Of a stretch of DNA of 64,000 nucleotides, positions 12,671-64,000 are shown piece after piece. Positions within the stretch are counted from its first letter, which is position 1. Every line of letters begins with the position of its first letter. The position numbers were made by a program, and so were the translations under genes. Below the pieces are notes generated by a model. That model searched no databases and was not told the origin of the DNA. It saw nothing but the letters and a program-made list of their open reading frames with translations. Source of the stretch: Blasia pusilla (Eukaryota); the NCBI GenBank assembly GCA_050084515.1, contig CM114271.1, positions 18,228,001-18,292,000 on the forward strand, written 5' to 3'.

Positions 12671-12719
12671 TTCCAAACATTGACGGTACAATTGATCCAA
12701 GCTTAGCAGTAGTTCTTGC

Positions 12720-12866
12720 AAGCTTGCGATATATGTTGTGTGGTTCTGCCAATGGTGCAGCCATTATGCTAGTTTGTGATGGATGTTCGAGAGGATGGCA
12801 TATGGCATGCTTGACGCCACCTCTCACTAGGGTTCCTTAGGGACGATGGATGTGTCCCAGATGTAC
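12720..12866 (+). pseudogene. Element A C-terminal PHD finger
   Basis: YMLCG...MLVCDGCSRGWHMACLTPPL..VP*GRWMCPRC, a C4HC3 pattern with the first Cys mutated. Confidence 0.85.
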
Positions 12867-13050
12867 ATACAGTAGATAGTTCTACATTCCGACTTGTTTC
12901 TGTGACATGGATGACAAGAAGGCGACTAACGAAGGAGCCACATGAGCACCAAACCTTTTTGCTCTTAGCTTGTGAGAGATGTATGTCATGGTAGGTAGGG
13001 ATAGATGGCTATCTGGAGTTAGAGGGACCTAACCACCAGCTAGGGGGAGG

Positions 13051-19994: not shown

Positions 19995-21005
<1,011 letters not shown>

Positions 21006-26696: not shown

Positions 26697-29600
26697 TGTC
26701 GTGAGCATAGATGTCGCTACACAACATACATTGCTATAACCGAACATACACACAAACACGTACGAGACAAGAAGTATCGAAATATCTCCAATTAAATCAA
26801 GTGGATCCAATCTCTCTCAACACCATAGCTCTCAAAATGTGTGCACTCTTACATGTCTCTCTCAATGTCAAACCAAACCCACTCTCCTAATGAGAGGCTT
26901 GGGTTATATTCATAAGGTAAGGGACCCTAATTTCGCCGCCTCGTGCCAAGAGGTTCAACAAAGAGAGAATGAGCTCTCAAGCTCTCTCTCCTTGAGGTAT
27001 ACCCCTTTCCCTTTCCCAAGCTATCTCCTTGGTAACCTATGCTTGCATATCACCTCCTTGGCTCTTGACCTGCTATAGGGGGTTAAAGGAAAATTCCCAA
27101 AGTGGGAAGTCAACTATACCAAATAGGGAAACTTACCCAAAATAATAAGTTTTAATATATGGCCCCCAAATGAGCCGAAACGAAGGGGAAAGATGCTCTC
27201 GTAGGTTACCCGTGGCCTCAGCAGGTCATCCTTGACCTCTTGAGGTTGTCCTCCAGTATCTCCGAAGGCGCTCTACTAGATCTTGCCGATCTATCCTAAA
27301 AGTCATGACAGTTGTCGGACGCATACACATCGCTACACAACATACATCGCTGTCACCAAACATACACACAAACACGCATGATCCCATGCTAACTCATGGC
27401 ATCCAAAAAAAAAGATAAGAAGTACCAAAATATCTCCAATCGCCCCCCTAGTTGGGGGTTAGGTCCCTCTAACTCTAGATAGTCACCTATCCCTACCTAC
27501 CATGATATACATCTCTCGGACGCTAAGAGCAAAAAGGCCGAGTGCTCATGTGGCCACATCGTTTGTCACCTTCTTGTCATCCATGTCACAGACACAAGTC
27601 AGAACCTAGAACTACCTACCATATATACATCGCGGACACATCCATCGTCCCTCAAGAATCCTAGTGAGAGGTGTCGTCAAACATGCCATATGCCACCCTT
27701 GCAAACACCTATCACAGGCTACCATACTGGCTGCACCATGGGCAGAACCACAACTTATATCACAAGCTTGCAGGAACTACGGCTAAGCTCGAATCAACTC
27801 TATCGTCAATGTTCGGAAGATGACATGACGCATGGTTACGCACATGGTCCTTCCAAACCATACCTTCGCGTCCCTCCAATAAGAGAACACCAGATGGCAA
27901 AACCTCACGCACTCTCAAGATGGTGCGTCATGCAGTCACATCCAATATTGTGGGTACCGTCTGCTCCAAGTAGACATAGTCTCCTTGATGAAACCTCCCG
28001 ATAGTAGGTGGATAACCACCTCCCCGAATAGTCGCATACCTCCACGTATCCCGATGCTGCGCAATCGCCAAGTTCTCAAACACCATGGGCATCACTGTCC
28101 GAAACAACTCAACCCTGTGCGAACATGCTTGCATCCATACATCACGGTCATCAAGGTTCAACACCTCACCAACATCTCGACGAATGGCCGCAGGGAAATC
28201 TGGCTCTCGGCCATAAAGCAACAAGTATGGTGAGAAAGACGCTAAGGATGTATGCCTGCTGAATATGTATCCCATCGCCAACCACGGCAAGTGGAGGTCC
28301 CAATCTCCTAGGTGACCTCTCTGCAAGCTATACTTGTCCAATCCTCTCTTCACCGTCTGCAAAACCCTCCCCGCTAGTCCATCCGCCTTAGGTTGATCTC
28401 GCAAAGTGGTGTGGTGGTCAATTAGTGCCAGATCACACAAGGCCTGAAACTCCCTGCGAAACTCTATACCTTGGTCTCTCAATATCTCAGCTGGTGCACG
28501 TAATGACTCAACACTCAATCTAGGAAGGCAAACGCTACTCCCTCACTTGCTTTATTAGGAAATGCAACCAACTCTATCCACTTTGAGAAGTGCTTGACCA
28601 TCACCAACACATAACGATTATGGCACTCCGTCAAAGGCAAAGGTCTTACAAAATCCAAACTCCATCTAAAACCTAAATCTCTGATCAGAAGTGGATGCAA
28701 TTGTGGAGTCGGAGCATTGAACGATGCTCGGACTCGGTCACACACCATGCACCTGGCAACAAACTGCTGAACGTCAGTCTGCATGCCTTGCCACCAATAC
28801 TATATCTGGAGCAAGTTGTACGTCCGCTTCACTCCAAAATGACCCGACTCTTTGTGGGCATGACGCACCAAACGTGCTCTCTACGAAGGATGAGGCACTA
28901 CACGCACTCTACCATCCTCCCAAACTCACAACATATGTGTCTCCTCCCACCGGAACCGTCTGGCTCGCCGTAGGATCCGATCCCGCTCTCTAACACCCAC
29001 TCTGCTCACGACGCTGCCACTACGCAGGTACTCCAAGACCACTCCATCGTCATGAATATCTCGGCCACCTGTCATCTCCTCACCGGACTTTGGATCTAAG
29101 GACTCTCCATCATACCTCGCCATCGAAGTCTCAACAATTTGGCTCTCCATAGCCAACAAGTCCAAATAGGCTGATGGGTGCCATCTTGGCACCAACTCCT
29201 CATCATTCTCACCATGCCAACGAGCTCTAGTCGCATCTTGCTGACTCAGGCATGGATTATGGCTCAAACCATCTGCATCCTAGTTGAGCGTCCAAGGTTT
29301 ATGCACCACCTGGAAGTCATACTCCTCCAACAAAAGAGCCCACCTCGCAAGCTTCCATGTAAGCTTGTCGGACACCATCAACCACTTAAGTGGCTGATGA
29401 TCAGTAATGATAATAAAGGGGTTTTTGAATAAATCACATCTGAAATGTGCAAAAATCCACACCGCAGCCAAGCACTCACCTTCATACGAGCTATACTTTG
29501 CCTCTGCAGCGTTGTTCGAGCGACTAGCGTAAGCCACCACGAACTCTCTACCATCATTGTCATGCTAGGTGAGCACGGCTCCAAGCCCCAACATGCTCCA

Positions 29601-33030: not shown

Positions 33031-34026
33031 TGTCGTGCGACTACTCTCCTTGAACGTCAATCTCTAGTGTTGCGGAAGCGTACGTTCAATAGGACATGCT
33101 CTCATCATCGACGTGCACCCAAACGCACTCACATTAGTCTGGCTTTGGGTCAAGCGGCCTTCCAACCCACCGAGTTCTCAACTCAACATTTCATCCAGCT
33201 TAACCTTCCTTACTTCCTAGGTTCCCAACACGGCAAATCCTTCAAGACTTGGAACAGACTTTCTGGTTAGTCCAGGAACCTAAAACGGCACCTGCGCGCC
33301 TAGCGGTTCTAACTGTTCAACGGATCTCATGCGTGTTCCTAACCGGGACCCAAGTAATTAAGTCGCGGATTGGAATCCAAGAGGGATCTCTAAAAATCAC
33401 CTCAATAGACTTGGCTCAGATTTTCAAGCCCAACTCCAAACTCCTGATCCGTTCCATGCCCTTGAGCCGCCCCATGGCGCCCAAAGTGGGGTTCGAGTCC
33501 CAAGCACCCTTGGAGACCTTCCCCTTACTATTACTTCTGGGGTTCTCCAATAACCCCTCACCTTTGGAAAATGATGGTCGGGCCCTTGATTGTGGCCCTA
33601 AACCCGACTCTACTTACAATCATTTTCGGGTCGTTTCTCAACTGCTACTTGTGTGTTAACGGAGATCTTTAGTGAGTATGAACCCGAATTTCCACAAGCT
33701 TTCCAACGCATCCTTAATTGTCCTAAACGTATCTCGGCGCTAGAAGTTATGGCCATAAATACAGTCGAAAACTCTCAAACGCTAGTAGCATCCCAAATCC
33801 GGATTCCTTCCTTTGGCAACGTGGACCAAACGCGGATCAAATATTGATCCGCGTTTGGTTCAGGTTTCTTAATCGTGACCACAACATATGAAATGCGAAG
33901 CCTCGCTTGCGTCTCGTCTCTTGTCTCTTCTCCAAGACCACTCCAACGCGCAAACCATCTTAGCGTGAACCTGCTAGTGTTCTGATGTTTCGCTTTAGCA
34001 CTCGTTTGGTCATGAAGGTCACGACA
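33031..34026 (-). mobile_element. Solo LTR, same family as 17591-18593
   Basis: TG...CA, collinear with 17591-18593, with 5-bp flanks attca/tttca. Confidence 0.85.
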
Positions 34027-40500: not shown

Positions 40501-41725
40501 AAATAATAGAACAAATGGGTAAGGAATTTCATGTAAAAATAATAAAAGCAATGCATGTATGGAAGCATAAACTTCTTTAAAAACTCGATGAAAATAATAG
40601 TACAAAGGAAATAACTTCCTTTTCTAATCAGATATTTTGCTAAAAACTTCCAAAATTCATAAAACTATCAATAATACCCCGCATTGGTCAAGAAATCCAT
40701 AGTATTAGCGAAATTTTGAATTTACAAATAGTGGCCAAACACAATCATTCTCCCAATAGCAAATTAAATTCACTTAAGAAAACACAAGAACTATCCAAGC
40801 AAATCACATACCTTTTGTAAATTGTGATTCCCCTCGTATAGTCATAAAGTGAGAAAATAGAGGTGAAATATCTTTTTTGATAAATATTTAAATAGGTCCT
40901 TAATCTAGAAGAAATAATTTATAAATAGTCTGTTATTTGCATTAGGATGCCCAATTTTTTAAGGTTTCAGTATTTGCCACATTTCAAGACTCTAGTATGT
41001 TACTAAGTGGTCTAAATTTTGACATCTCTAGTATATTTAACCAATGAATGATATTTCCGAGTTCACAATCTTGATATTTGCATTTCCATTGCGAGATCCA
41101 AATGCTGAAATATCAAGGATATTGAGTAATGTATGGTTTCCAAACTTATTGTCTTCTCTAATGTTTGTGTAGACTTCTCCATCTTAAGAAGAAGAAGGAT
41201 CATAATCTCCACACAAAGATGTGGTCGTTTAGCAACGATTGAACAAGAATACAGAATGGGGAGAAGGGCAAAAACAATGTGTTGCTCAAATGGTCACTTT
41301 AAGACTTGCATAATCAAGGAATGCATCCATGTCTATTGCCTTGGGAACCATTCCGCAAACTTTGCCATCTAAGGAAGACATAAACTATTTCCATATTCCC
41401 ACACATAACCAAGAAGGTTAAGAGGCAATTAAAGAGGAGTATCGGTCGTGAAAACGCCTAATCCCTAAACATTAGGATAATTGTTACTTTACGACTTGGG
41501 TATCTGTGGAATGGCTTTTGAGCTATTGCATTGGAAACCATTCCACAATCTTTGCCATCTTAGGACGATGGAGGATCATCTCCATAAAAAAATCGAGAAC
41601 CTCTAGCAATGGCTAAATAGGAGTAAAAAGTGAGGAGAAGGAAGAAAATAACTTGTCACATAATGGCTTCTAAGCAATTGCATTGGAAAAATTATGTATG
41701 CTTTCTCAAGAAGAGGGAGCACACT

Positions 41726-42070
41726 GCTACATCTTAGTTAGTCGATATGTAGAATTCAACCGCGTCGACGACATAGAGGGTCAGTGGGTAGTTTGGGTGT
41801 AACTTTGTTCAGAGATGTTGGATGAGGTTGACAACTTGTCCATTGTGTGAGGAATGTCATTTTTGGCGATTTTCCTACTTTGATATTTCTAGCCAAGTAA
41901 CCCGTTGATGAGTCAAAGATCAATGGGTAACTTGTGCTCCATCATATGTTAATGTTTTGAGGCTATTTTTCGGGAAAGAGAATTTTTGGCTCTTCCAAAG
42001 GCTAAAAGAGAGGGACAGATGGCTTTCCCAAGCCATCTTTCCATCATGTTGGTAAGGGGTTACTAGCATA
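41726..42070 (+). repeat. Terminal-repeat-like sequence of a third subfamily, copy 1
   Basis: Similar to 44802-45350 (cttagttag..gggtagtttgggtgtaactt..ccgttga..ctttcccaagccatctttcc) and directly precedes a DNMT fragment. Confidence 0.6.
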
Positions 42071-44800
42071 CACTAAGCGCCCATATTTTGTTGTTGGGGG
42101 CACATGCCTTGGATAGAGGTGGCACCATTCATTTGGTGATTGTAGGATGGCCATGTCAAGATCATTCATCGGCTGGCCAAGGGTTTAGAATGCAGGATCC
42201 GAGGCCAGGATGTTTTAGGAGATGCTACAAATATTCGATACTTGTAGGAGAGTCACATATGTTCTCCGGCGTATATTCTGTAGAACGTGCCACTATTGGG
42301 AGACACTCGTGCACGGGTGATGACGAGTGTGCATCAAGTGAGGTCATGGCTAGGACTTTCCATATTGTTGGATGCCGCGAGAGTTGGATCATACACACAC
42401 TATTTACGGTTATGGTGGACGAACCTTCTATCACTGGAGGTATTGAGCCGAGCTTATGATGGAGTTCAAAGAATACCACAATTGATTGTGGATGCGATCC
42501 TGGGTCTATGGCGTCGGTCTCCTGTGATGACGCTCGATGAACTAGATGATAGATCATCGTAGGCGGTAGCCAATAGGGTGGGGGAGTTGAGGTCAGCCTT
42601 ACCTACGTTGTTGAGCTTCACGATATCCCATGCCTTTTGAAAAGGAGGGCGAGGCATGACTTGGGATGCAAAGATCCGAGCATTAGATGAGTTTACTGAT
42701 AATAAGCGCGAACCCGCCATGGGGTTTACTATTGGTATGTGATACTATGACACTGCCAGATGTGATAGAGGCATCACGATGGACCTCAATTTTCTCACAT
42801 GGATAGTCACTCTAGGTATGGTTGAGCACAGAGGGATGTGAGTATCATCAATTGCATCACGTCCATAATGTCACATCTTCTAGGATAGATCGACAAGATC
42901 TACTAGCGCGCCTTTGGGGATACTATAGGTCAACCTCAAGAGGTTGAGGATGACCTACCAAGGCCACGGGTAACCTGAGAGAGTAGGTTTTCCCTTTGTT
43001 TTGGCTCATTTGGAGCCATATTGAGAAACTTACTATAACAAGTAAGTTACCATTTGAGTATATTTGACTTTCTATTTTGGGAAGTTATCCTTGACCTCTT
43101 ACAGCAGGTCAACAGCCAAGGAGGTGACCTACGAGCATAAGTTACCGTGGAGAGAGATCTTGGGAGAGGGAAGGGAGTATATCTCAAGGAGAGAGAGCTT
43201 GAGCACTCATTCTTTCTTTGTTGAACTTCTTGGCATGAGGCGACAGAGCTATGGTCCTCTTTGACTTGTGTGTATAACCTAAGCCTCTCTTGAGGAGAGT
43301 TGGTTTTGGTTTGATATGAGAGAGATAGAGTTGTGCACCTTGTAAGACATTATGAGAGAGTGTTACTTGATTTAATTCGAGATATTTTGTTACTTATCGT
43401 CTGATGTTTGGATAACATGAGTTAGCATGGGATCGAGAGTGTTTGTGTGTGTATTTGGTGAAAGCGATATATGTTGTGTAACGATGTCTATGCGCACAAC
43501 AATGAGTTAGCGTATTGCTCACATGGTATGTAAAGACATTGGCTAGGGGCGAGGGGAGGAGAGATAGGCATCCATGGACTTCCTGGGACGTCATTTGAGC
43601 AGAGAGTATGGAGGTGGCCAAAGTGGCACATGTTCATTTTTCAAGTGTGGAGCATGATGTGGGATCTAGATCAGAGTGGGATAACTGTAGCAAAGATGGC
43701 TAAGGTTGCTACATAGTAACCCTAGCTACATCGTTCTTTGGTTGCCATATAGCAACCCTAGCTAGACGGGGGTTGCGTCCTCTTCGAGTGAGGTCACGAT
43801 GGAGACTTGGGAGCTTGTGATATGTCTTGAGTTGACAAGAGAAGAGAGACCGTAGATACATAGATTTTTGAGAGGGCATGTGGGATGTTTTTCCTTCAAT
43901 ATAAGAGACTTGGGTACTTTTAAGGATCCCGAGATACGGATAGATTTCACTAATGATATGCCAATCCTTTGTCGATCCTAGAGGTATTTTGACATGGAGC
44001 GAGCCTTGACTCCGAGTAAGAGTCAGGACTTGTGGGAGGCAGTATTGGTGGAGTTATTGCATGAGGAGTATGCATATACCAAAGTCATGCTGGCGAAGAA
44101 GGATATGTATGGCAACTGGATAGATGGGCAGATGTGTAGAGATCACAATCCTATTAACCGGCAGACAAGATTAGATTGGTATGCCATGTCTACTCATGAG
44201 GAGATCTTTTCTTTGGTAGGGCATTCAAAGCAAAGATCTCCTCATGAGTAGACATGGCATACTTTAGCATGGAGATCTTAAGTACTGCCCTCTTTGCTTT
44301 GGTAGGCATCTCCGTGCTGGCTATCATCAACTGCCTATCAGGATGGAGGACAAGAAGAAGACAAATTTTTGGGGGATAGATTGGTTCGCAAGAGATTTTT
44401 TGTAATAGTGGTGGTTCTTACCATTTGGGTTCAAGAACACCCTTATGGAGTTCCAGAGAGTCATGCATAGGATTTTGGCTCGCTTGGATTTTGTACAATG
44501 TTACATAGATGATATTGTTATCTTCAATTCCATGATTGAGGAGCATGAGCGACACCTGGAGGAGGGGTTTTGATCATTGCAATTATATCCAGGCAAGTGC
44601 AAGTTTTTTGAAGAGCAAATTGAGTACTTGGGACAAACCATAAACCATAAGGTGGGTTAGATGTTCAACACATAAAGGTGAAGGCTATTATACAGATTCC
44701 ATGCCCTACAAATGTGAGTCTAGTTCGAGCGTTTCTGGGACACGTAAACATCTGTTGCCAATATATCAAGGGGTTTAGTGCGATTGTGAAGTCTTTGACC
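42070..44800 (+). mobile_element. Element E: degenerate DNMT-RT fragment of the same group
   Basis: LVIVGWPCQDHS (42130-42170), NVPLLGD, LLDAARVGS..LRLWWTNL, and RT motifs LPFG and CYIDD (~44500). Confidence 0.85.
42869..43501 (+). mobile_element. Solo A-B unit of family 1 (633 bp) nested in element E
   Basis: TGTCA...CAACA, with A directly followed by B. Flanks ataa/atga. Confidence 0.85.
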
Positions 44801-44801
44801 T

Positions 44802-48358
<3,557 letters not shown>

Positions 48359-49111
48359 TGTCGTGCGAATCCACATCGTCATACAACATACATCGTTGAC
48401 ATACCATACTTACATACATACAACATAGACGAGAGCATCCACAAACATAAGTGTACCACAACTGAAATCCGTGGAAGACCTACTGTCATAACACACGTAT
48501 AGAATCACATACAATCGAGCCAAACCCACTCCACGATGGGAGAATCCAAGTCGAAGCTTGCGGGAACTACCATAACCAAGAGCTCTACTCACTACCAAGG
48601 CTAACTCCCAACACAACAAGCTCAACTCAAAGAACTAACTGTTCTTTGAGTGCACTCCACACTATATCCTCCAACCTAACAGCGGGCCCTACTGGAAAAG
48701 TCACCCTCAACTGAGTAACCCCCAACCCTGTGTATGGAACCGCATCTCTACCTAGACACTACGGCCCTACATAAGGTATGGCCTCTACTAGCACACTATA
48801 CTCTACGACATAATCCGTATGGTCATGACAGTTGTCATGCGAATCCACATCGTCATAAAACATACATCGCTGATATACCATACTCACATACATACATAAC
48901 ATATACGAGAGTATCCACAAACACAAGTGTACCACAACTCGCCCCCCTAACTAGCGGTTAGGTCCCTCTAACTCCTAGGTAGCCCTATACATCTACAACA
49001 TGCTATACACCTTCTTGGGTGCCCGAATCAAAAGGTCGGGTGCTAGGTTGCCCCATCGTTAGTCGCACATATGTAATCCATATCATGCAAAGATCAAGTC
49101 ATCTACCTCTC

Positions 49112-50257
49112 CTAAGTACATCGAGGACAAACCCACCTTCCAGTAGGAACAACATCCATACATGGAGTCAAACACATAATGTGCCAACCCCTAGAACACC
49201 GATCACACACCAACATACAGGCTGTGTTACCAGCAGACCCACACAACATGCACCTCAAGCTAGCATGTATCATGGCTAAGCTTGGATCAACAGTACCATC
49301 CACATTTGGAAGATGACATTGCTCACAATTATGCACATGGTCCTTCCAAAAAACTCCATCACGACCCTCAAACATGAGAACTCCAGAAGCTAACACCTCG
49401 CGCACTCGTAAAATAGTGCGGTCTGCCGTCACATCCAACGTTGTCGGTGCAATCTGCTGCAAATAGACATAGTCCCCCACATGGAACATACAAATCGATG
49501 GTCGATAACCTCCACCCTGAATGGTTGCATACCGCAACGTATCCTTATTTTGAGCAATGGCAAGACTCTCAAAGGTTGTTGGCATAACTCTCCGAAAGAG
49601 CTCTGTCCGCTGAGAACACACTCTCATCCACATCTCTGGGTCATCAAGGTTCACCACCTCACTAGACTCCCGACGAATTGCTACTGGCAAGTCTGGATCT
49701 CGGCCGTTTAACAGAAAATAAGGTGAGAAGGAAGCCAAGGATGCTTGGCGACTGAACCTATATCCCACGGCTAACCATGACAACTGAATATCCCAGTCTC
49801 CAAGATGCTCCTTCTGTAGGCCATACTTGCGCAATGCCCTCTTCACCGTCTGAACCACACGCTCAGCCAAACCATCCGCCTCTGTATGATCTCGAGACGT
49901 GGTCCGATGATCAATCAACGCCTTGTCACACAAGACCTGAAACTCACCCTGAAACTTTGGACCCTGGTCGGTCAGCACTTCAGCTGGTGCACCAAAATGA
50001 CTAAGCACTCTATCAAGAAATGCATACGCTATTCCCTCACTTGCCTTGTGAAGTAATGCCACCAAATCAATCCACTTGGATAAGTGCTCCACCATCACCA
50101 ACACATATCGATGATGTCGTACAGTCAACGGTAACGGTCCCGCAAAGTCCACACTCCAACGGTAATCCAACCCCATAATAAGCAAGATGTGTAATTGTGG
50201 TATAGAGGCATTGAATGATGCCCTCACCTGGTCACAAACCATACAACGTGACACCAA
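49112..50257 (-). CDS. Integrase core fused in frame to a C-terminal PHD finger (381 aa, element C)
   Basis: WSVDFAGP, LTDQG and GLAERVV (DDE), then CMLCGS...MLVCDRCSRGWHIMCL...WVCPRC in one open frame. Confidence 0.9.
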   Translation of the reverse strand: MVSRCMVCDQVRASFNASIPQLHILLIMGLDYRWSVDFAGPLPLTVRHHRYVLVMVEHLSKWIDLVALLHKASEGIAYAFLDRVLSHFGAPAEVLTDQGPKFQGEFQVLCDKALIDHRTTSRDHTEADGLAERVVQTVKRALRKYGLQKEHLGDWDIQLSWLAVGYRFSRQASLASFSPYFLLNGRDPDLPVAIRRESSEVVNLDDPEMWMRVCSQRTELFRRVMPTTFESLAIAQNKDTLRYATIQGGGYRPSICMFHVGDYVYLQQIAPTTLDVTADRTILRVREVLASGVLMFEGRDGVFWKDHVHNCEQCHLPNVDGTVDPSLAMIHASLRCMLCGSAGNTACMLVCDRCSRGWHIMCLTPCMDVVPTGRWVCPRCT

Positions 50258-52269
50258 TTGCTACACCTGAGTATGCATGCCACGCCACCAATACTGACCA
50301 AGGAGTAAGCTATATGTACGCTTTATCCCAAAATATCCCAACTCCTCATGGGCATGTCGCACAATGCGCTCTCTTTGAGCCAAATGCGGCACTACTCGTA
50401 CTCTACCATCCTCCCACACACGGAGAATATGTGTTCCCTCCAATCGATACCTCTTAGCACGTTGAAGAACACGGTCTCGCTCCTTGGCACTCACTATGCC
50501 TGGCACCCTACTGGTCCGTAGGAACTCCAACACCAACGCATCATCATGAATATCACGCTGATCCGTACCACCATCTCCAACCTAGGATCTGAAGGCTCGC
50601 CATCTACCCTCTGACTAGAGTAAGATGGCCAGCCATCTTACTCTAGTAAGATGTCATGTGGTCCTCCATACTAGAGTCCACCCCTAACCAACATAAAAAG
50701 GTAGATGCATGCCAACTTGGCACCATCTCCTCATCAACCTCGCCATGCCATCTAGCCCCAGTTGCATCCTCTTGGCTAGTACATGGGTTCCTACTCAACC
50801 CATCAGCATCAAGGTTGGCAACTCGAGGTCTATGTACCACTTGGAAGTCGTACTCCTGTAAGATAAGAGCCCACCGTGCAAGCTTCCCTGTAAGCTTGTC
50901 AGACTCCATCAACCACTTGAGCGGCTGGTGATCAGTAACAAGGGTAAAGTGTGTGCCAAACAAGTAACACACAACCCACACTGCTGCCAAGCACTCTCCC
51001 TCATATGAACTATAGCGCGAAATTGGTTCAAAGGCTTTGCCATAGCACTAAATCCCTTCACATACCTCCGATAGTAGTTCACCAATCCCATGAATTCCTG
51101 AACTCTACTCACATCTACCGGACGAGGAATAAGTGCAATAGCCTCCACCTTTGCTTGCCGAACTCCCAAACCACCTGGATAGATCACATGACCCAAGTAC
51201 TCAACATCCTCATGGAAGAACTTACACTTTTCCGGATGCAAACGTAGACCATGAGCTTTCAACCGCTCAAACACAATCTGCAAATGTATCTGATGCTCCT
51301 CCACCGTGTTACTGAACACCAAGATATCATCCATGTAACACCGAACAAAATCCAACCCTGCTAGGATCCTGTCCATCACCCTCTGAAACTCGGCATGTGC
51401 ATTCTTCAACCCAAAGGGTAAGAATTTCCACTAGTACAAACAATCCTTGCCATGAGAGTTGACACCCCAAAATGTTGTCTTGGCCTTGTCACTCTCTCGA
51501 ATCGGCAATCGATGGTATCTGCCGAAGATCCAAAATCTGAAAATCTTTGCTGTCCCACCACATCAAAGATCTCTCAGGTGTAGGCATGGCATACCTATCG
51601 CCTTGGTCTGCCGATTGATAGGACGGTAATCTCCACACATCCGCCTATCCGTGTAGTTGCCATGCATATCCTTTTTTAGCATGATGGCAAAGTGGGGTGA
51701 TGCATACTCTCCATGCGAAAATTCCACTAATCCAGCCTCCAAAAGGTCCAACGTCCTACTCTGAATCAGGTCCCTCTCCATATCACTATGTTGGTAGGGA
51801 CGATGAAAGATTGGCATATCACTAGCCAAATCAATCCGTATACCGGTCCAACCAAAGCACCCAACTCCTTCATGCTAAAGGCAAAACAACTCCTATAAGT
51901 ACGTAGGAACTGTGTCAAGCGTCATTTCTCACCTCCCGTAAGCTTGGGCCCAAGTAATGGCTCCCAAGTCTCCTCCACTGGCACACTAGAGGGAGAGGAC
52001 GACGCCATTGGTTGCTACGCAACCCCCTCACAAGATGGTACACCCTTAGCTACACCATCATTTGAGCAAATAACTCCTCCACCGGCATGAGCAACCGACT
52101 CCACATGCCCAGCCATTACATCCCATTTACTCCAAGGATGCAAAATACTACTCTCCTCGCCCCCAGCTGATGCCTCTACCATCCCGGTAGCCATCGAGCT
52201 CATCACAAGGGGTGAAAGACCCACAAACATAGTCCGAAGTTGACGCTGCTCGACCATACCAATACTCAA

Positions 52270-53230
52270 AATCCAGGTCAAACAATTCAGGTCCATGGCC
52301 TGACCCAACACATGACATCGTGAAGCCTCATAAATGGAAGCAACCGCTGTCACACCAATAGCAAATCCCATCGCACGCTCTCTCTCATCAGCGTTAGGCT
52401 CCACCAAGTGTCGCACATGAGAATCCTTACAAGCCCGGACCACCTTCCCTGTAGGCATGTGACGAGGGAAAACTCACAAATGTGGGTAGTGCCATCCTAG
52501 GCTGGCCCACATGGTTTACCACTGCCATGGGTGACCGATCAATAACCCTCACCACTTAAGAGAGTCGCCCAGTATCCAAGATACTAGCCATTGTAAGGCA
52601 AGGATCCCAGCTGCATTGCATCATATGCTCGACGTAGAACCTCCCTAGGCAACAAGTTTGTCCACCACAAGCGTGGACGATGTGCACGCAAGCCAACTCA
52701 CGCTGAATCTAACAACACCGCTGGTCCAATCCAAGACCGCATCTCATGAACACTCGCCATCATCCGGGTTCGAGTGTCACCCAACAATGGAACATTCTCC
52801 AAAATGTGAACTGGAGCACGTGCCTGATGAACCTGAAGATATTGTAATACCCGTAATATCTCCCAAAATAATCGAGACCTAGGGTCGTGTAATCCTCACC
52901 ACGACCAGCACGTGTATGACCCTAACATGGCCATCCAGCAATCACCAAATCCACAAGACCAACCCTCTCAAGGTCTTGCGCCCCCAACAATGCAATGTGT
53001 GACGGCAAAGCACGCTGGTATCCACGAATAGCTGATGGTGGCAACAACTCAAGATATCTCCGAATCAATTGACCAATATGTTGGGATGAGACTCTCTGGG
53101 CCGTCTCATCTCGCTCCACATACACGTATCTCCACACAGGAATACAGCTTGCAACACTGCAGCCAAACCAGTGCTCATCCCACCAAAGAGATCTAACACA
53201 CAAATGCCCTCCGGCGGATACTCCTATACA
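52270..53230 (-). pseudogene. Element C cytosine methyltransferase domain
   Basis: LDLFGG (~53180-53195), YVYVERDE, LVIAGWPC*, ENV (~52795), ERERAMGF, RCHVLGQAMDL. Confidence 0.9.
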
Positions 53231-55052
53231 ATGCGTGTAGTATCCAAAGGGGATAACCCAACTAGACCAGAAGTAGGAGTCCACCGTGGGGCCTCCTCTT
53301 CCTCGTGAGGTATAACAGCCTCACACCAAGCCTCCTGCACTAGGCGTCGACCTCTGCCGTAGTGCACTTTGCTCGAACTCCAAAGTGGCACATCCAACGA
53401 CGAGGATACCACTGCTACAAAACTAGGGACTCCTCTACCTCCTCATGCACAGGAGAATCCATAGCATAAAGGTTACCCTCCAAAAAGTCTCCTGGCCAAG
53501 TGACTACTCCAGAAAAACCAGCCACAGATGCTAACACCGTTACGGAAGACCATCCTGGTCGAACCCGACAAATAAATCTCACAGGAACCTGGCTCACACG
53601 TCCATCCCCGAATTTCCAACAAGGTCTATAAGACGTTGTCTAAGTCCAGTAGTCCATCTGAAAACCCATCCGATACAATACTGCTCCTCCATACGGCTTG
53701 GCTGATGTGACCACTACAGGTACTGCCAACCAGGAGCTATCAGTTGCATGATTTGGTCTCAAGTGTACAGAAAACATCTCCCGTGTCATGAATTGAGACC
53801 TATCATTGGCTCCTCCAAGTGATGTTTGAATCTGAAATGGGCAAGGCTCAAGCTCTGACCTCCGAATACCCAAACCAATACATGTCGCCTTTCCCAACAT
53901 CAAAGGTTGGGCACCAAAGTCTAACAAGACTCTATCTGGTCTATACACCTGTCCTGTAGGACTCACCAATCGGAATATCCCACTCCGGTTGTCCAACATA
54001 CATACACCAGGTGTAAGCCTCTCATGATCAATAGCTGGTCGGGCTGGCAATGCATCCATCTTCGCCGTTGCTGCCTACCAAGTAGCACTGGTACTCAATG
54101 CTACACTTGACATAGAGGGTCGCTCCACCGCAACACCCTCATCCACCTCAACACGTGTAGTAGTAACATCCCCACGTTCACACAACGTGGCTGCTAGCTG
54201 AAATACAGGAGCTAAGTCAACTCCTAAAGCCATCAGCTCCGTGGCTGAAAATAATGGGGATCCCAACACTGAAGTTGCCATCCGCAATATTGCACTGGAT
54301 GCTACATCCCTGTCTACTACACGCGATGTACATGCCTCAGTCCCGACTGTAGGCTCAATAGGCTGCGTAGAAACCATGGATGGAGTCCTAAGCACCTCAG
54401 ACAACAAGAATGACTGGGGAAGCCTAGCCTGCCTCCCAACCTCACCCCTCTGTGGTTCCAACTCCACAATAGCACCACGTGGCTCTAACGCTCGAGTGGC
54501 TCCTCTCGTAACTGCAGCCAATGCTTCAACCTGTGCTACACTCGCCATATAAGAGAGATCATCCCCTCCATAAGAGGTGGAAGCCCCTGCTCTGGAACCT
54601 GCTCTATGCTGGATACCAGCCATAATAGCCAACTTATGCTCCAACTGCTCAATTCAGGCAACCATAGCTGACTCTGTTGTAGTGGTAGGGGTAGCCACCA
54701 TAGGCTCTCCAACCACTGGTCTAGCTCTACCACCCCTACTACCTCTACCATCTTGGCCTCTCGGAGCTACTCCACCACGGCCGCAACCTAATCTCAACTT
54801 TGGATGAAGATCAAAGCAACGCTCTCGAGGATGACCTAGTCTCCCGCAATGATAACACTAAGTTGGGGCCGACTGAGGCCCATCCTCCAAAGTCCGTCCC
54901 CCATCCTCTTGGGGACAAAACCTCCTAACATGATAACCTCCACATGTCTAACATGCCTTTCCTTGCTGCGGGGCAGCAAATGAAGGCAATGGTCTTTGCA
55001 CAAGTGTCCCTCTAGGACCTGACTGAGGTCATATGTACCCCCTACGACTCCC

Positions 55053-55084
<32 letters not shown>

Positions 55085-56327
55085 GAGATTGTGAGGTGGA
55101 TTGCTGAACACGAGAAGTAGTAGTTGTATCCCTACTGAATGCGGATGTCACCACTCTCTCCTCCACCATGTTAAGCTCAATCTTCTCAGATAGAGCAAAC
55201 ACATGGGTCAATGTGGGTGAATCATCACTCATAAGAGTAGCATCACATACCCTGCGGCGCAACTCTTTGTCCAAGATCCCATACCAAAACAGGACTGCCT
55301 GAGCCGCAGTTACACCATGGGTAACTGAAATCAAGCGTCATATTTCAAGCGTCACATAGGAATGTATGCCTCACGAAGACACTCACCAGTCTTTCGCTCA
55401 AATTCCTGAAGACTCCTCAACTTCTCTGTCTTCACTCCCTGATAGTTCTTCTTCAACCTCTCGGAGAACTCTACAACCGGGCTGAACAATGGTGGGGCAC
55501 TAGTATCTCCACTAGTACCCCCACTGGTACCTCCATGGGTACCTCCAATGGTACCTCCACTCCGGCTCGTACTCGTACCACTCAACGTCGGGCTGACTGG
55601 CATAGTAGAAGCACTACTACCAATACCACCATGGGTGATAGACACATAGCCTAGAGACCAATATTGTCTCCACGCCTCAATCTCAACAATATGGTCCTTC
55701 CTAAACTCATGGTAATCGTCCATGGGTGGTCCCTCCAAGTGCTCAAACAACCCCTTCCAAGCCAAGAAGGGTGTAAACAACGTGGCCTTCCGCAACATCT
55801 GCATATCACACCACGTATCAAACTCCTGAATGAAGTCCTCCAACTCAATGGTGCCCACTGCACCTAAGTATAGTCGTGGGCCCTTCATGGCCCCATATAT
55901 CCCATCCATGTCCCAAATCAATGGAGTTGCAGCACTCGATAACAACATAGAAGACTCGGTGTTTAGAACCCCCTTGTCCTCCTCTTCATCAACCGTCAAA
56001 AGTGGAAAAGGTAGTCGATACCTCAATCCACTCCATGTAAAACCACCACTATCTGCACCACGGTCCCCAACTAGACCACCAGACAGCTCTGTGATGACCA
56101 ACGCCGATGCCGCACCACCACCAAATGGTGGCGGTGCGGCAATCACCACCACTAAGTAACTAAGTGACATCGATGTCGCTGTACTATTCTAGCTCTACTA
56201 GCTATGGGTGTAGGCAAGCTAACCTGTCATCACCACAAGAAGCCTCCCACGGTCTACTTGTCATCAATCCAGCCTCACTACCGGTAGCACACATGAGTAA
56301 AACTATTGTGGAAATCGGCGTCAACTT

Positions 56328-59300
56328 TGTCGTGCGAATCCACATCATCATACAACATACATCGCTGACATACCATACTCACATACATACATAACATAGA
56401 CGAGAGTATCCACAAACACAAGTGTACCACAACTCGCCCCCCTAACTGGCAGTTAGGTCCCTCTAACTCCCAGGTAGCCCTATACATCTACAACATGCTA
56501 TACACCTTCTTGGGTGCCCGAATCAGAAGGTCGGGTGCTAGGTTGCCCCATCGTTAGTCGCACATCTGTAATCCATATCATGCAAAGATCAAGTCATCTA
56601 CCTCTCCTAAGTACATCGAGGACAAACCCACCTTCCAGTAGGAACAACATCCAAACGTGGAGTCAAACACATCATGTGCCAACCCCTAGAACACCGATCA
56701 CACACCAACATACAGGCTGCGTTGCAGAGACCCACACAACATGCACCTCAAGCTAGCATGTATCATGGCTAAGCTTGGATCAACAGTACCATCCACATTT
56801 GGAAGATGACATGGCGCACAATTACGCGCATGGTCCTTCCAAACAACTCCATCACGACCCTCCAACATGAGAACTCCAGAAGCTAACACCTCGCGCACTC
56901 ATAAAATTGTGCGGAGTGCCGTCACATCCAACGTTGTCGGGCACTCTGCTGCAAATAGACATAGTCCCCACATAGAACCTACAAATCGATGGTTGATAAC
57001 CTCCACTCGAATGGTTGCATACCGCAACGTATCCTGTGTTGAGCAATGGCAAGATTCTCAAAGGTTGTTGGCATAACTCTCCGAAAAGAGCTCGCTCGTT
57101 GAGAACACACCTCATCCACATTCTCGGGTCATCAAGGTTCACCACCTCACTAGACTCCCGACTAATTGCTTCTGGCAAGTCTGGATCTCGGCCGTATAAC
57201 AGAAAATAAGGTGAGAAGGAAGCCAAGGATGCTTGGCGACTGAACCTATACCCCATGGCTAACCATGGCAACTCAATATCCTAGTCTCCAAGATGCCCCT
57301 TCTGTAGGCCATACTTGCGCAATGCCCTCTTCACCGTCTGAACCACACGCTCAGCCAAACCATCCGCCTCTGGATGATCTCGAGACGTGGTCCGATGATC
57401 AATCAACGCCTTGTCACACAAGACCTGAAACTCACCCTGAAACTTTGGACCCTAGTCGGTCAGCACTTCAGCTGGTGCACCAAAATGACTAAGCACTCTA
57501 TCCAGAAACGCATACGCCGTTCCCTCACTCGCCTTGTCCGGTAATGCCACCAACTCAATCCACTTGGAGAAGTGCTCCACCATCACCAACACATATCGAT
57601 GATGTAAATGCATACCAACAGTAACGGTCCCGCAAAGTCCACACTCCAACGGTAACCCAACCCCATAATAGGCAAGGGGTGTAATTGTGGTGTAGGGGCA
57701 TTAAATGATGCCCTCACCCGGTCACAAACCATACAACGTGACACCAAATCGCTGCACACTGAGTATGCATGCCACGCCACCAATATCGCCAAGGAGTAAG
57801 CTATACGACGCTTTATCCCAAAATGTCCCAACTCCTCATGGGCATGTCGCACAATGCGCTCTCTCGAGCCAAATGTGGCACTACTCGTACTCTACCATCC
57901 TCCCACACACGGAGAATATGTGTTCCCCAATCGATACCTCTTAGCACGTTGAAGAACACGGTCTCGCTCCTTGGCACTCACTATGCCCGGCACCCCTCTT
58001 TGGTCCGTAGGAACTCCAACACCAACGCATCATCATGAATATCACGCTGATCCATACCACCATCTCCAACCTTAGGATCTGAAGGCTCGCCATCTACCCC
58101 TCGACTAGAGTAAGATATCATGTGGTCCTCCATACTAGAGTCCACCCCTAACCAACATAAAAAGACGGATGCATGCCAACCTGGCACCATCTCCTCATCA
58201 ACCTCGCCATGCCATCTAGCCCGGATTGCATCCTCTTGGCTAGTACATGGGTTCCTACTCAACCCATCAAAGCATCAAGGTTGGCAACTCGAGGTCTATG
58301 TACCACTTGGAAGTCATACTCCTGTAAGATAAGAGCCCACCGTGCAAGCTTCCCTGTAAGCTTGTCTGACTCCATCAACCACTTGAGCGGTTGGTGATCA
58401 GTAACAAGGGTAAACGGGTGCCAAACAAGTAACACCTAAAGTGTGCCCATGACCCACACTCTTGCCAAGCACTCTCCCTCATATGAACTATAGCGCGACT
58501 CCATTGCATTATTCGAACGACTTGCATAGGCCACCACAAACTCCATGTGCTCATCATCATGTTGTGTCAACACCGCTCCAAGTCCCAACCTACTCCAATC
58601 GTGTGTAATCTGGAAATGGGCGCCCCGATAGGTCTCCTCAAGATAGGCTCCGCCACCAACGGGCCTTAAGCTCCACAAAAGCTCTCTCGATCATCTCCCA
58701 GTGCCACTCTTGATCTGATTTCAGCAATTGGTTCAAATGCTTTGCCATAGCACTAAATCCCTTCACATACCTCCGATAGTAGTTCGCCAATCCCATGAAT
58801 GCTCAAACTCTACTCACATCTACCGGACGCGGAATAAGTGCAATAGCCTCCACCTTTGCTTGCTGAACTCCCAAACCACCTGGATAGATCACATGACCCA
58901 AGTACTCAACATCCTCATGGAAGAACTTACACTTTCCTAGATGCAAACGTAGACCATGAGCTTTCAACCGCTCAAACACCATCTGCAAATATATCGATGC
59001 TCCTCCACCGTGTTATCGAACACCAAGATATCATCAATGTAACACCGAACAAAATCCAACCCGCTAGGATCCGTCCATCACTCTTTGAAACTCGGGAGGT
59101 GCATTCTTCAACCCAAAGGGTAAGAATTTCCAATGGTACAAACAATCCTTGCCATGAGAGTTGACACCCCAAAATGTTGTATTGGCCTTGTCACTCTCCG
59201 AATCGGCAATTGATGGTATCTCGCCGAAGATCCAAAAATCTGAAAATCTTTGCCTGTCCCACCACATCAAAGATCTCTCAGGTGTAGGCATGGCATACCT

Positions 59301-62300
59301 ATCGCCCCTGGTTTGCCGATTGATAGGACGATAATCTCCACACATCCGCCTATCCGTGTAGTTGCCATGCATATCCTTTTTAGCGAGCATGACAGTGGGC
59401 GATGCATACTCTCCATGCGAAAATTCCACTAATCCGCCTCCAAAAGGTCCAACGTCCTACTCGAATCAAGTCCCTCTCCATATCACTATATCGGTAGGGA
59501 CGACGGAAGATTGGCGTATCACTAGCCAAATCAATCCGTATACCAGGTCCAACCAGAGAACCCAACTCCTTCATGCTAAAGGCAAAACAACTCCTATAAG
59601 CACGTAGGAGGCGTGTCAGCGTCGTTTCTCACCTCCCGTAAGCTTGGGCCCAAGTAATGGCTCCCAAGTCTCCTCCTTTGGCACACTAGAGGGAGAGAAC
59701 GATGCCATTGGCGCACACGCATAACCCCCTCACAAGATGGTACACCCTTAGCTACACCATCATTTGAGCAAATAACTCCTCCACCAAAGCATGAGCAACC
59801 AACTCCACATGCCCACCATTACATCCCATTTACTCCAAGGATGCAAAATACTACTCTCCTCGCCCCCAACCGATGCCTCTACCGCCCCGGAGCCATCGAG
59901 CTCATTACAAGGGGTGGAAGACCCTGACATAGTCCGAAGTCGATTTGCTCGGCCATACCAAGACTCAAAATCCAAGTCAAACAATTCAGGTCCATGGCCT
60001 TTGACCCAACACATGACGTCGTGAAGCCTCGTAAATAGAAGCAAATTTGTCACACCGAGAGCAAATCCCATCGCACGCTCTCTCTCATCAGCGTTAGGCT
60101 CCACCAAGTGTCGCACATGAGAATCCCATACAAGCCCCGGACCACCTTCCCTGTAGGCATGTGACGAGGGAAAACTCACAAATGTGGGTAGTGCCATCCT
60201 AGGCTGGCCCACACGGTTCACCACTGCCATGGGTGACCGATCAATAACCCTCACCACTTGAGAAAGTCGCCCAAAGATATCAAGATACTATCCACCGTAA
60301 GGCGAGGATCGGCCGCTGACCGCATCATATGCTCAACGAGAACCTCCCTAGGCAACAAGTTTGTCCATCACAAGCGTGGACGATGTGCACGCGAGCCAAC
60401 TCGCGCTGCATCCAACAACACCGCTGGTCCAATCCAAGACCGCACCTCATGAACACTCGCCATCATCCGGGTTCGAGTGTCACCCAACAATGGAACATTC
60501 TCCAGAATGTAAGCTAGAGCACGTGTCGATGAACTCTGAAGATGTCGTAACACCCGTAACATCTCCCAAAACAATCGAGACCTAGGGTCATGTAATCCCT
60601 CACCACGACCAGCACGTGTATGACCCTGACATGGCCATCCAACAATCACCAAATCCACAGGACCAACCCTCTCAAGGTCTTGCGGCCCCAACAATGCAAT
60701 GTGTGATGGTAAAGCACGCTGGTACCCACGAATAGATGATGGCGGCAACAACTCGGATATCTCCGCATCAATCGACCAATATGTCGGGATGAGACTCTGG
60801 GCCGTCTCATCTCGCTCCACATACACGTATCTCCGACAGAATACCGCCTGCAACATCGCCGCCAAACCAAGTGCTAATCCCACCAAAGAGATCTAACACA
60901 CAAATACCCTCCGCGGATATCGCCATACAATGGGTGTAGTATCCAAAGGGGATAACCTAACTGGACAGAAGTAGGAGTCCGCCGTGGGGCCTCCTCTTCC
61001 TCGTGAGGTATAATGACCTCACACCAAGCCTCTGCACTAGGCGTCGGCCTCCGCCATAGTGCACCGCTGAACTCCAAAGTGGCACATCCAACGATGAGGA
61101 TGCCACTGCTGCAAAAATAGGGACCTCCTCTACCTCCTCATGCGCAGGAGAATCCATAGCAGAAACATTACCCTCCAAAAAGTCTCCTGGCCAAGTGACT
61201 ACTCCACTAAAACCAGCCATAGATGCTAACACTGTTGGGGAAGACCCTCCTGGTCGAGCCCCAGTAATAAATCTCACAGGAACTTGGCTCATACGTCCAT
61301 CCCCGGACTGCCAACCAGGTCAGAAGACTGTCTCGACCCAAATAATCCATCGAAAACCCATCGGATACAATCGCTCCTCCAACTAGTACATCATACGACT
61401 CGGCTGATGTGACTACCGCAGATACTCCCAACCGGGACCTATCAGTCGCATGATTTGGTCTCAAGTGTACAGAAAACATCTCCCGTGTCATGAATTGAGA
61501 CCTATCATTGGCTCCTCCAAGTGATGTTTGAATCTGGAATGGGCAAGACTCAAGCTATGACCTCCGAATACCCAAACCAATACATGCCGCCTTTCCCAAC
61601 ATCAAGGTTGGGCACCGTGAGTCTAACAAGACTCTATCTGGTCTATACACTGTCTGTAGGACTCACCAATCGGAAGATCCCACCGGTTGTCCAACATACA
61701 TACACCAGGTGTAAGCCTCTCACGATCAATGGCTGGCCGGGCTGGTAATGCATCCATCTTCGCCGCGCTTGCCAAGTAGCATTGGTACTCAATGCTACTC
61801 TTGACATAGAGGGTCGCTCCACCGCAACACCCTCATCCACCTCAACACGTGTAGCAGTAACACCCCCACGTTCACACAACGTGGCTGCTAACTGAAATAC
61901 AGGAGCTAAGTCAACTCCTAAAGCCATCGCCCGTGGTGAAAACAATGGGGATCCCAACACTGAAGTTGCCATCCGCAATACTGCATTGGATGCTGCACCC
62001 GTGTCTACTACACGCGATGTAGATGCCTCAGTCCCCACTGTCGGCTCAATAGGCTGCGTAGGAACCATGGATGGAGTCCTAAGCACCTCAGACAACAAGA
62101 ATGACTGGGGAAGCCTAGCCTGCCTCCCAGCCTCACCCCTCTGTGGGTCCAACTCCACAGTAGCACCACGTGGCTCTGACGCTCGAGTGGCTCCTCTCAG
62201 AATCGCTGGTGATGCCTCAACTTTGTCTTTGCACTCGCCATATAAGAGAGATCATCCCTCCATAAGAGGTGGAAGCCCTCGCTCCCGAACCCGATCTATC

Positions 62301-64000
62301 TTTGGATATCGACCATAGTAGCCAACTTCTGCTCCAATCTGCTCAATCTTGGCGCCATAGTCGACTGTCGTAGTGGTAGGGGTAGCCACCGTAGGCTCTC
62401 CAACCACTGGTCCACCTCTACCACCCCTACCACCTCTACCACCTCGGCCTCTCGGAGCTACTCCACCACGGCCACGGCCTGATCTCAACTCTGGATGAAG
62501 ATCAAAGCAACGCTCTCGAGGATGACCTAGTCTCCCGCAATGATCACACTGAGTTGGGGCCGACCGAGGCCCATGCTCCAAAGTCCGTCTCCCATCCTCT
62601 TGGGGACAAAACTTCCTAACATGATCATCTCCACATGTCCAACATGATCGCCCTTGCTTGCTGGGGCAGCAAATGAAGGCAATGGTCTCTGCACAAATGT
62701 CCCTCTAGGACTTGATCGAGGTCGCGTGTACCCCCACGACTCCCATTGCTACTACCACCACCACTACTACGAGACTGTGAGGTGGGCGGTGAACACGAGA
62801 AGTAGTAGTTGTATCCCCATGAATGCGGATGTCACCACTCTCTCCTTCACCATGTTAAGCTCAATCTTCTCGGGATAGAGCAAACACATGGGTCAATGTG
62901 GGTGAATCATCACTCATAAGAGTAGCATCACGCACCCTATGGCGCAAATCTCTGTCCAAGATCCCATACCAAAATCGACTTCTGATCCTCGGTCACACCT
63001 GGGTAACTGAAATCAGCGTCGATACGCTGGCGTGTATGCCTCACTTAAGACTCTCACCACCTTTCGCTCAAAGTCCTGAAGATTCCTCAACTTCTCCGTC
63101 TTCACTCCTTGATAGTTCTTCTTCAACCTCTTGAAGAACTCGAACGGGCTAAACGATGGTGGGGCACTAGTACCTCCACTAGTACCCCCACTAGTACCTC
63201 CACTTTGGTACCCCCACTCCGGCTTGTACTCGTACCACTCAACGTCGGGCTGGCTGGCATAGTAGGAGCACTACTACCAATACCACCATGGGTGATAGAC
63301 ACATAGCCTGGAGACCAATATTGTCTCCATGCCTCAATCTCAGCAACATGGTCCTTCCTAAACTCATGGTAATCATCCATGGGTGGTCCTTCCAAATCTT
63401 TGAAACAACCCTTCCAAGCCAAGAAGGGTGTAAACAATGGCGTTCCGCAACATCTGCATATCACACCACGTATCAAACTTCTGCATGAAGTCCTCCAACT
63501 CAATGGTACCCACTGCACCCGAGTATCGTCGTGGGCCCTTCATGGCCCCATATCCACCGTCCATGTCCCAAATCAATGGAGTTGCAACACTCGATAACAA
63601 CGTAGAAGACTCGATGTTTGGAACACCCTCGTCCTCCTCTTCATCAACCGTCGGAAGTGGAAAAGGTAGCCGATACCTAAATCCACTCCGTGTGAAACCA
63701 CCACTGTCCGCACCACGGTCCCCAACCAGACCACCCGACAGCTCCGTGATGACCAACGCCGATGCCGCACCACCACCAAATTACCCAAATGACGTCGATG
63801 TCGCTCTACTATTGTAGCTCTACTAGCTATGGGTGTAGGCAATCTAACCTCTCATCACTACAAGAAGTCTCCCACAGTTTACTGGTCATCACTCCAGCCT
63901 CACTATCAATAGCACACAGGAGTAACACTACTCTGGAAATCAACGTCAACCCTAACAATGGGCGCGCAAGCAAGAAGCACGATGGAGGGGATCCAGACAC
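56328..64000 (-). mobile_element. Element D (family 2), same architecture, ends in repeat B only; 5' end is outside the window
   Basis: Collinear with C from PHD to gag. B at 56328-56434. Knuckle CDHCGRLGHPRERC and RGG box in 62252..62581. Many 1-bp frameshifts. Confidence 0.92.
59980..60910 (-). pseudogene. Element D cytosine methyltransferase domain (best preserved catalytic core)
   Basis: ORF 60368..60886 reads VDLVIVGWPCQGHTRAGRGEGLHDPRSRLF...YILENVP...GSRAHRPRL. ORF 59760..60257 carries ERERAMGF. Confidence 0.92.

Follow-up and report, generated by a model that had tools for sequence, protein, structure and literature searches.

The window, which denotes the whole stretch of 64,000 nucleotides analysed, contains at 49112-50260 (minus strand) a single open frame of 382 codons, with its stop codon at 49112-49114. 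The frame is the integrase-PHD end of a dead Gypsy copy, termed element C. It harbors a DDE integrase core (49481-50260; Pfam rve, 4.7e-11; D38, D98, and E133 of P0001), an SH3-like integrase C-terminal domain with linker (49271-49480; modelled beta-strands at residues 264-314), and, as its last domain, a C4HC3 PHD finger (49115-49270; first cysteine codon at 49252). An AlphaFold2 model of the frame (mean pLDDT 81.6) comprises the core, a long helix, the beta-rich C-terminal domain, and the finger—the latter at a pLDDT of ~82-93 over residues 330-380—and its integrase fold resembles and matches the integrases of foamy virus and Ty3. A sequence-only reading of this DNA had proposed an intact finger in frame after the integrase, and this was borne out: residues 337-381 match PF00628 (2.6e-06, 27.8 bits, cut-off 24), all eight zinc ligands are present (C337, C340, C352, C355, H360, C363, C378, C381), the late tryptophan is also kept, and the best solved-structure matches are the PHD fingers of KMT2C, CHD4, KMT2D, DPF2, ATXR5, KDM5A, and BHC80 (lowest E 1.5e-15). 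The protein terminates one residue past the finger, and the spacing between C-terminal domain and PHD is 225 nt in 46 of 56 copies. The finger was also correctly placed where chromoviruses carry a chromodomain: the integrase C-terminus has a PHD and no Pfam Chromo match, and the reader starts 204 residues past the catalytic glutamate in element C versus 202 for the chromodomain of L146, a chromovirus copy found in the same genome. The finger was further said to be present in elements A, B, and D; recognizable remnants do exist in all three, but none is intact. In A (12712-12867, plus strand), tyrosine replaces the first cysteine, an internal stop is present, and a frameshift lies upstream; in B (27627-27752, minus strand) and D (56610-56763, minus strand), a frameshift splits the finger. 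A and B constitute a second family, ~70% identical to C.

The domain order of element C is Gag-PR-DNMT-RT-RH-INT-PHD, of the Gypsy type with a DDE integrase, and the remaining domains likewise lie on the minus strand. A broken Gag region with a CCHC zinc knuckle near 54850 (54075-55800) and an aspartic protease region (53640-54074) were delimited by translation; the region homologous to the latter in P0047 weakly matches gag-asp_proteas. The DNMT3-type cytosine methyltransferase (52270-53210; Pfam PF00145) retains motifs I, IV, VI, VIII, IX, and X in canonical order, distributed over three frames. Between this domain and the reverse transcriptase (51030-51874; Pfam RVT_1, 8e-23) lies a conserved in-frame TAG (52015-52017) followed by CAACCA (together 52009-52017), which fits the CARYYA motif as defined in PMC2754532. 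RNase H (50643-51047; Pfam RT_RNaseH) is partial, with a gap of ~70 codons at the RT-RH join, where L167 has residues 348-417. A stop at 50261-50263 severs the core from the integrase N-terminal zinc domain (50261-50581; Pfam Integrase_H2C2, 1.7e-09), whose His pair is absent from the integrase-PHD frame. Further stops and frameshifts are found in gag, DNMT, and RT. Since the DNMT motifs occupy three frames and the zinc domain is cut off, the window alone contains no proof of a single polyprotein.

The element extends from 48359 to the equivalent position 67297 and ends in split repeats (A ... B-A-B) that begin with TG and finish with CA. Repeat B2 (48359-48463) forms its right end, followed by A2 (48464-48830; 367 bp, starting with TG) and B1 (48833-48939; ~107 bp, ending with CA), all on the minus strand. 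A1, the 94.3% identical partner of A2, lies to the right of the window at the equivalent position 66931-67297; identity between A1 and A2 has a median of 95.2% (range 88.6-99.5, 24 copies). A 4-bp target-site duplication (48355-48358, minus strand) recurs as four identical bases beside A1. Such duplications are exact in 16 of 20 both-ended copies and have at most one mismatch in 20/20, with 3 or 5 bp in 0/20. Instead of A ... B-A-B, a conventional element would show a pair of similar LTRs, the left one followed by a tRNA primer site; this arrangement was not found, and TGG directly after A1 was seen neither in the two copies read nor in the 14-base flanks examined. The internal B|A junction (48359-48939 in the window; also L031-L122) reads CA, two bases, TG, and thus looks like a circle junction in an element with a DDE integrase. 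A mild asymmetric target preference is seen as well, the fourth base of the duplication being T in 27 of 57 right flanks and the first base G in only 5. Membership in Phygy, which is defined by a 4-bp NCGN target preference (Neumann et al. 2019), was rejected: NCGN occurs in 1/57 right flanks, and 6 carry its decay products NTGN/NCAN. A short RT motif looked for in supplement files of that paper was absent from those searched. The locus is triply nested (41500-64000 and beyond). Element D (56325-64000, minus strand, continuing to equivalent position 65620), a member of C's family with a single B at its 3′ end and its own 4-bp duplication, sits in the 5′ untranslated part of C, and C in turn is inserted in the integrase of element E (41500-48354, plus strand), which represents an older related family and resumes with its PHD end at equivalent positions 67313-67573. 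Elsewhere, the window contains a tandem-like repeat (611-1448), a 1-kb pair of 85% identity (17591-18593 and 33031-34026), long simple repeats (20161-20955 and 45077-45325), and a 292-codon frame on the plus strand (24465-25343) with no Pfam match.

Histone contacts of the PHD finger and insertion flanks

PHD fingers that read methylated lysine through an aromatic cage carry a tryptophan two residues before the histidine. None of 125 proteins of the lineage has this residue, and the cage is absent. The question of a cage versus H3K4me0-type residues, raised by the sequence-only reading, thus receives a divided answer: no cage exists and the A1 and R2 contacts are kept, but the acidic K4 contacts are missing. 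Contact residues were judged against KDM5A PHD1 and AIRE as described in parts of PMC2261226 and bioRxiv 10.1101/715474. The A1 pocket (L350, P372, G374, W376) and the R2-binding D353 are retained, the Asp, Pro, Gly, and Trp matching KDM5A D312, P331, G333, and W335 being conserved; 9-10 of 10 close proteins share pocket and Asp, and the R2-binding Asp is described as essential in KDM5A. Where KDM5A has D292, E305, D306, and D315, element C has Ala333, Thr346, Ala347, and Ser356. Acidic residues equivalent to E305/D306 occur in 0/10 close proteins versus 77/115 distant ones, a count from which 34 of 149 distant proteins that were off pattern are excluded. The net charge of the finger differs between the two sets, with a median of +2 (+6 in some) in close proteins against -4 in distant ones.

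A predicted complex of the finger with residues 1-32 of the genome's own H3 scored 0.38 as compared to 0.02 for the best control, with contact agreement between runs of at least 85% and a partner pLDDT of at least 53. On the same scale, scores of 0.60 or lower are obtained for only 5 of 78 solved complexes and for all 4 passing mismatches. This prediction weakly suggests likeness only, since similar complexes are among the solved structures. The chromatin bias of insertions considered in the sequence-only reading did not emerge, flanks resembling background in a test of low power that is blind to chromatin marks: 10/56 flanks versus 33/200 background positions lie in related elements (p 0.84). 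In the equally low-powered test for repetitive flanks, the counts are 20/54 versus 59/192 (p 0.41), and the CpG observed/expected ratio of flanks is 0.58 against a background of 0.66. It is conceivable, albeit unlikely, that the finger in C's branch no longer reads histones at all and instead serves a structural role, binds nucleic acid, or recognizes a non-histone partner. The basic surface and the loss of the residues matching KDM5A D292, E305, D306, and D315 speak for such a change, as do the flat flank counts and the fact that many PHD fingers fail to bind H3, which was bound by only 31 of 123 constructs in a human PHD screen. Against it stand the A1 pocket and R2-binding Asp shared by the close proteins, the strong purifying selection described below, and the predicted H3 complex, which, although weak, scored above its controls.

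A stop codon between methyltransferase and reverse transcriptase

Junction frames were counted in 82 copies. All domain junctions are mostly in frame, and a shared stop occurs at the DNMT-to-RT junction only. At the commonest spacing of this junction, the stop occupies the same codon in 17 of 20 copies, and only 2 of 44 copies pass from DNMT to RT in frame without a stop. The stop is TAG in 64/77 copies and is followed by CARYYA in 54/77, the exceptions being mostly small gaps or one alternative alignment. Elements A and B carry nine bases identical to the stop context of C, and in unselected stretches the same nine bases appear in 4 of 11 hits, whereby several of the remaining hits do not reach across the site. 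The signal recurs in some of the metagenome relatives, of which 80 loci were collected. In L167, 1,369 codons with DNMT are followed by TAG CAGTTA and 1,047 codons with RT-RH-INT-PHD; the context is TAG CAACTA in L158 and TAG CAATCA in L170. A stop plus CARYY was found in 19 of 21 close metagenome loci inspected, which are not independent: 16 of the 19 constitute one metagenome family with CAACCC, not CARYYA, six of them having TAA. The residue encoded by the hexamer varies (Pro, Leu, Ser), with YYA constant.

UAG-CARYYA is a defined readthrough signal of plants, for which 11-32% readthrough is reported in plant reporters (PMC2754532). Transcription across the junction was followed with stranded reads from three runs of one study (X16-X18), whose species label is shared with the sequence, mapped on L083:1-9901. 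The family is transcribed, nearly all in the sense direction, with ~4,500-4,900 of 10-12 million records per run, derived from many diverged copies. Sense RNA crosses the DNMT-RT junction without a sharp step, and no joint placing RT behind the 5′ end was present among the joints listed. RNA depth drops near the A2 end. Since TAG-CARYYA is conserved, relatives share it, and RNA crosses the junction without a step, the stop is probably leaky and read through by a minority of ribosomes. No published description of this probable readthrough stop was found among the listings and abstracts searched.

The stop could also be the true end of a first reading frame, with pol arising independently, either through reinitiation at an ATG close by or from an RNA of its own, so that the two halves never share one chain. 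An ATG does lie two codons past the stop in the C/D family and in one metagenome family, and pol is covered more deeply by RNA reads than gag. However, A, L158, and L167 lack such an ATG; past the stop, L167 has its first Met at residue 117, which speaks against reinitiation. Frame and CARYY context are conserved across families, and the rise in depth is gradual, as expected from 3′ bias. Separate production of pol, which overlaps with the other alternatives considered here, therefore seems improbable. With a leaky stop as the preferred reading, the proposal that one polyprotein supplies both reading and methylation stands only in part. One element does encode a PHD finger and a DNMT3-type enzyme, both conserved, but TAG-CARYYA separates Gag-PR-DNMT from RT-RH-INT-PHD, and a single polyprotein would be a minor readthrough product. 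In related lineages, one polyprotein appears to be the rule, since the single 2,811-residue ORF of protein P0047 and the locus L196 run through the DNMT-RT junction without a stop and the conserved stop occurs in 0/28 distant loci.

Copy number, selection, and relatives

In the 390-Mb genome (eight large contigs plus a 14-Mb one), a first look yielded 10,899 candidates for the integrase end, 12,316 for DNMT, and 1,636 for chromodomains; 150 candidates were scored per query, which apart from self matches were 85-93% identical. In 40 evenly placed 10-kb stretches (L238-L277), DNMT-PHD families account for 14.3% of the sampled DNA (bootstrap 8.8-20.8%), which extrapolates roughly to 7,800 PHD and 8,800 DNMT copies in the genome. 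DNMT-bearing copies overall number roughly 8,000-12,000. Forty copies chosen by their DNMT, taken from the top of the 150 scored with few omitted, comprise 32 with integrase and 29 with a PHD at the expected distance; in 16, the finger has its full ligand set and is free of stops. The DNMT domain of another copy is unbroken and has its best solved-structure matches in DNMT3A/B (2.6e-09), DRM (2.4e-05), and HhaI (0.004); motif IV is present in 73 and motif VI in 67 of 82 copies. The DNMT tree was built without host DNMT3 and has long branches.

Selection was estimated by pairwise dN/dS counts on natural copies, comparing the C/D family with window elements A, B, or E. Between families, ratios are 0.12-0.33 for PHD, 0.15-0.17 for DNMT, 0.20-0.22 for RT, and 0.12-0.21 for the integrase core as compared to 0.35-0.48 for the linker before the stop, all values being rough with dS near saturation. 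Private variants are near neutral (0.72-1.01). These ratios indicate that both PHD and DNMT were under purifying selection. Positive selection on PHD, to which a within-family dN/dS of 1.31 might point, was rejected, private variants being neutral (N/S 1.01); the variants shared within the family probably reflect recurrent deamination. Decay of copies (L031-L142) affects 9.2% of CHG and 6.4% of CG sites versus 1.6% of CHH. Because decay is strongest at CHG and CG, the copies have likely been methylated by host-type silencing.

Relatives were collected with the integrase lacking its PHD as query, and the nearest 150 cluster representatives were classified with our own profiles and Pfam spot checks. 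PHD fingers occur in 135/150 clusters, and in 120/120 of those with at least 240 residues past the core, mostly at a near-fixed distance of ~160-170 residues. DNMT is present in 69/150: in 5 of these it precedes RT, and in the other 64 it immediately precedes the integrase. Of the 69, 66 also have a PHD, as do 3/3 of the long DNMT-bearing proteins found. The pairing of PHD and DNMT is thus real, although less rare than the sequence-only reading assumed, being the rule in a large lineage. In a quick, unrooted RT-RH tree of 59 rows with no chromovirus outgroup, a branch with support 99 has the DNMT-before-integrase set on one side, and the C/D family clusters with metagenome elements and with P0003, a transcript of Coleochaete scutata that is the nearest labelled relative. 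An atlas search for look-alikes of PHD and C5-methylase had hits in both Chlorophyta and Streptophyta. In most of the distant relatives (P0074-P0222, e.g., P0129, P0085, P0089, P0130), DNMT lies between RNase H and integrase, and 300-450 further residues follow the PHD. Of these tails, 106/108 are interrelated; weak matches below cut-off point to the PTM/DIR17 Tudor domain (E 0.007-0.25) and to the adenine-type methyltransferase D12 (E 0.002-0.18), the latter mostly with a degenerate motif IV (canonical in 4/58). These tails may represent a counterpart, built around a PHD, of the EpiLTR toolkit discussed below.

The finger might be coupled to the methyltransferase in the manner of the ADD domain of DNMT3, so that its recognition of H3K4me0 would direct methylation to the target site. 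This arrangement would fit the near-constant co-occurrence in DNMT-bearing relatives (66/69 clusters, 3/3 long proteins), the existence of single ORFs with both domains such as P0047, and the larger algal-type branch, in which DNMT directly precedes the integrase and the finger is acidic. In C's family, by contrast, the finger lies ~4.1 kb downstream of the DNMT start, with the stop, RT, RH, and integrase in between, and a reader beside the catalytic domain in one mature chain was not found in element C. Moreover, the position of DNMT varies by branch while the PHD stays with the integrase, and the acidic K4 contacts are missing in C. The analogy to ADD drawn in the sequence-only reading is therefore weak, and a coupled enzyme of this kind is quite unlikely for C. 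With the PHD fixed after the integrase, DNMT in two positions, and ~4.1 kb with RT, RH, and integrase between them, the finger is best regarded as a probable appendage of the integrase rather than a regulator of the methyltransferase.

Proposed life cycle and known systems

The reading we favour, and consider reasonably probable, is that element C is a dead copy of a Gypsy element with a DNMT3-type enzyme, in which integrase-PHD and DNMT are separated by a leaky stop, reader and writer acting in one life cycle and not as one coupled enzyme. One RNA would yield abundant Gag-PR-DNMT and a rarer full-length readthrough product including integrase-PHD, from which the protease would release the domains. 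Since DNMT precedes the stop and PHD follows it, writer and reader were likely made in different amounts and worked separately. Particles would contain DNMT in numbers similar to Gag, and the enzyme would act on the cDNA or the new insertion, as has been proposed for DIRS elements (PMC5890265). The PHD finger, remaining on the integrase, would tether it to nucleosomes via the H3 N-terminus (A1, R2), and any preference for unmethylated K4 would be weak. The location of DNMT on the Gag side of the stop predicts a high-copy particle component and makes methylation of the cDNA a more likely role than action on host chromatin. A broader scenario, which we regard as rather doubtful, is an old Gypsy branch spanning the green lineage—'PHD-viruses', the counterpart of chromoviruses—in which the PHD steers the integrase, active DNMT3 is loaded at Gag level via the leaky stop, and new copies arrive methylated in K4-unmethylated chromatin; this branch would have reached land plants, where it makes up ~1/7 of the genome, and its algal-type members would add Tudor-like and amino-methyltransferase-like domains. 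The PHD lineage would represent a second way of targeting the integrase, apparently without a name so far, at the chromovirus position, with acidic and basic fingers as a natural contrast.

Two of the ingredients are already published, namely Gypsy-DNMT3 in Klebsormidium and a PHD-bearing Gypsy element in Chlamydomonas. No paper joining PHD with Gypsy-DNMT3 or placing Gypsy-DNMT3 in land plants was found in a search of listings and abstracts, in which only two papers use the family names; a PHD may be shown in figures, in Repbase, in bioRxiv supplements, or in the Chara genome paper. The Chara braunii genome paper is said to name a PHD-bearing Gypsy family, and fusions of transposable elements with PHD fingers in general have been described. 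The Klebsormidium nitens element (KnitGypsy-Dnmt3 or Gypsy-DNMT3; de Mendoza et al. 2018, PMC5890265) shares with element C a Gypsy pol, an unrearranged DNMT3-type domain under purifying selection, and DIRS-like split repeats, which are also present in metagenome loci L182, L196, L199, and L215. Its DNMT is said to share an ORF with RT, an uninterrupted arrangement found here in the relatives P0047 and L196, whereas C's family has a conserved TAG in the same frame. Few copies are reported there as opposed to the roughly 8,000-12,000 DNMT-bearing copies of what is probably a land plant. Thousands of DNMT3-type genes, occupying a considerable part of what is probably a liverwort genome, would extend a phenomenon described for algae. 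PHD is mentioned neither in the main text nor in three supplement files of PMC5890265, whose Fig. 4c could show one. The same source reports no activity of the Klebsormidium DNMT in yeast, a result its authors judge inconclusive, and its discussion treats the role of retrotransposon-borne methyltransferases as an open question.

Gypsy-7a_cRei of Chlamydomonas reinhardtii (Craig et al., PMC9940879) resembles element C in having a Gypsy polyprotein with a PHD finger, which is proposed to lessen harmful insertions; its insertions are 2.6-fold enriched in intergenic sequence. It differs in that no DNMT is among its listed domains and its LTRs are near-ordinary. EpiLTRs (bioRxiv 10.64898/2026.05.21.726589) likewise combine a reader and a DNA methyltransferase in one LTR element. 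Theirs are a chromodomain, DAM, and a DNMT4-related enzyme, a set not encountered in element C, which has PHD and a DNMT3-type enzyme instead; the text of the preprint sets Gypsy-DNMT3 apart and mentions no PHD domain. The finger itself is similar to the H3K4me0 readers KDM5A PHD1, AIRE, BHC80, and ATXR5 in having an A1 pocket, an R2-binding Asp, and no aromatic cage, and dissimilar to fingers of this type, as far as these are described, in that C's branch lacks the acidic residues on the K4 side. Stop-codon readthrough is reported for the retroelement SIRE1. In contrast to SIRE1-type readthrough, the stop described here lies past Gag-PR-DNMT and before RT rather than between gag and protease or before env. 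As in type I (TMV-like) readthrough (PMC2754532), UAG is followed by CARYYA and the downstream ORF is in frame. With chromoviruses, finally, element C shares a histone-reader fold at equal distance past the integrase core (204 versus 202 residues), yet it carries a PHD finger for the chromodomain, split repeats, and a DNMT, and its integrase is 25-30% identical to those of the genome's chromoviruses.
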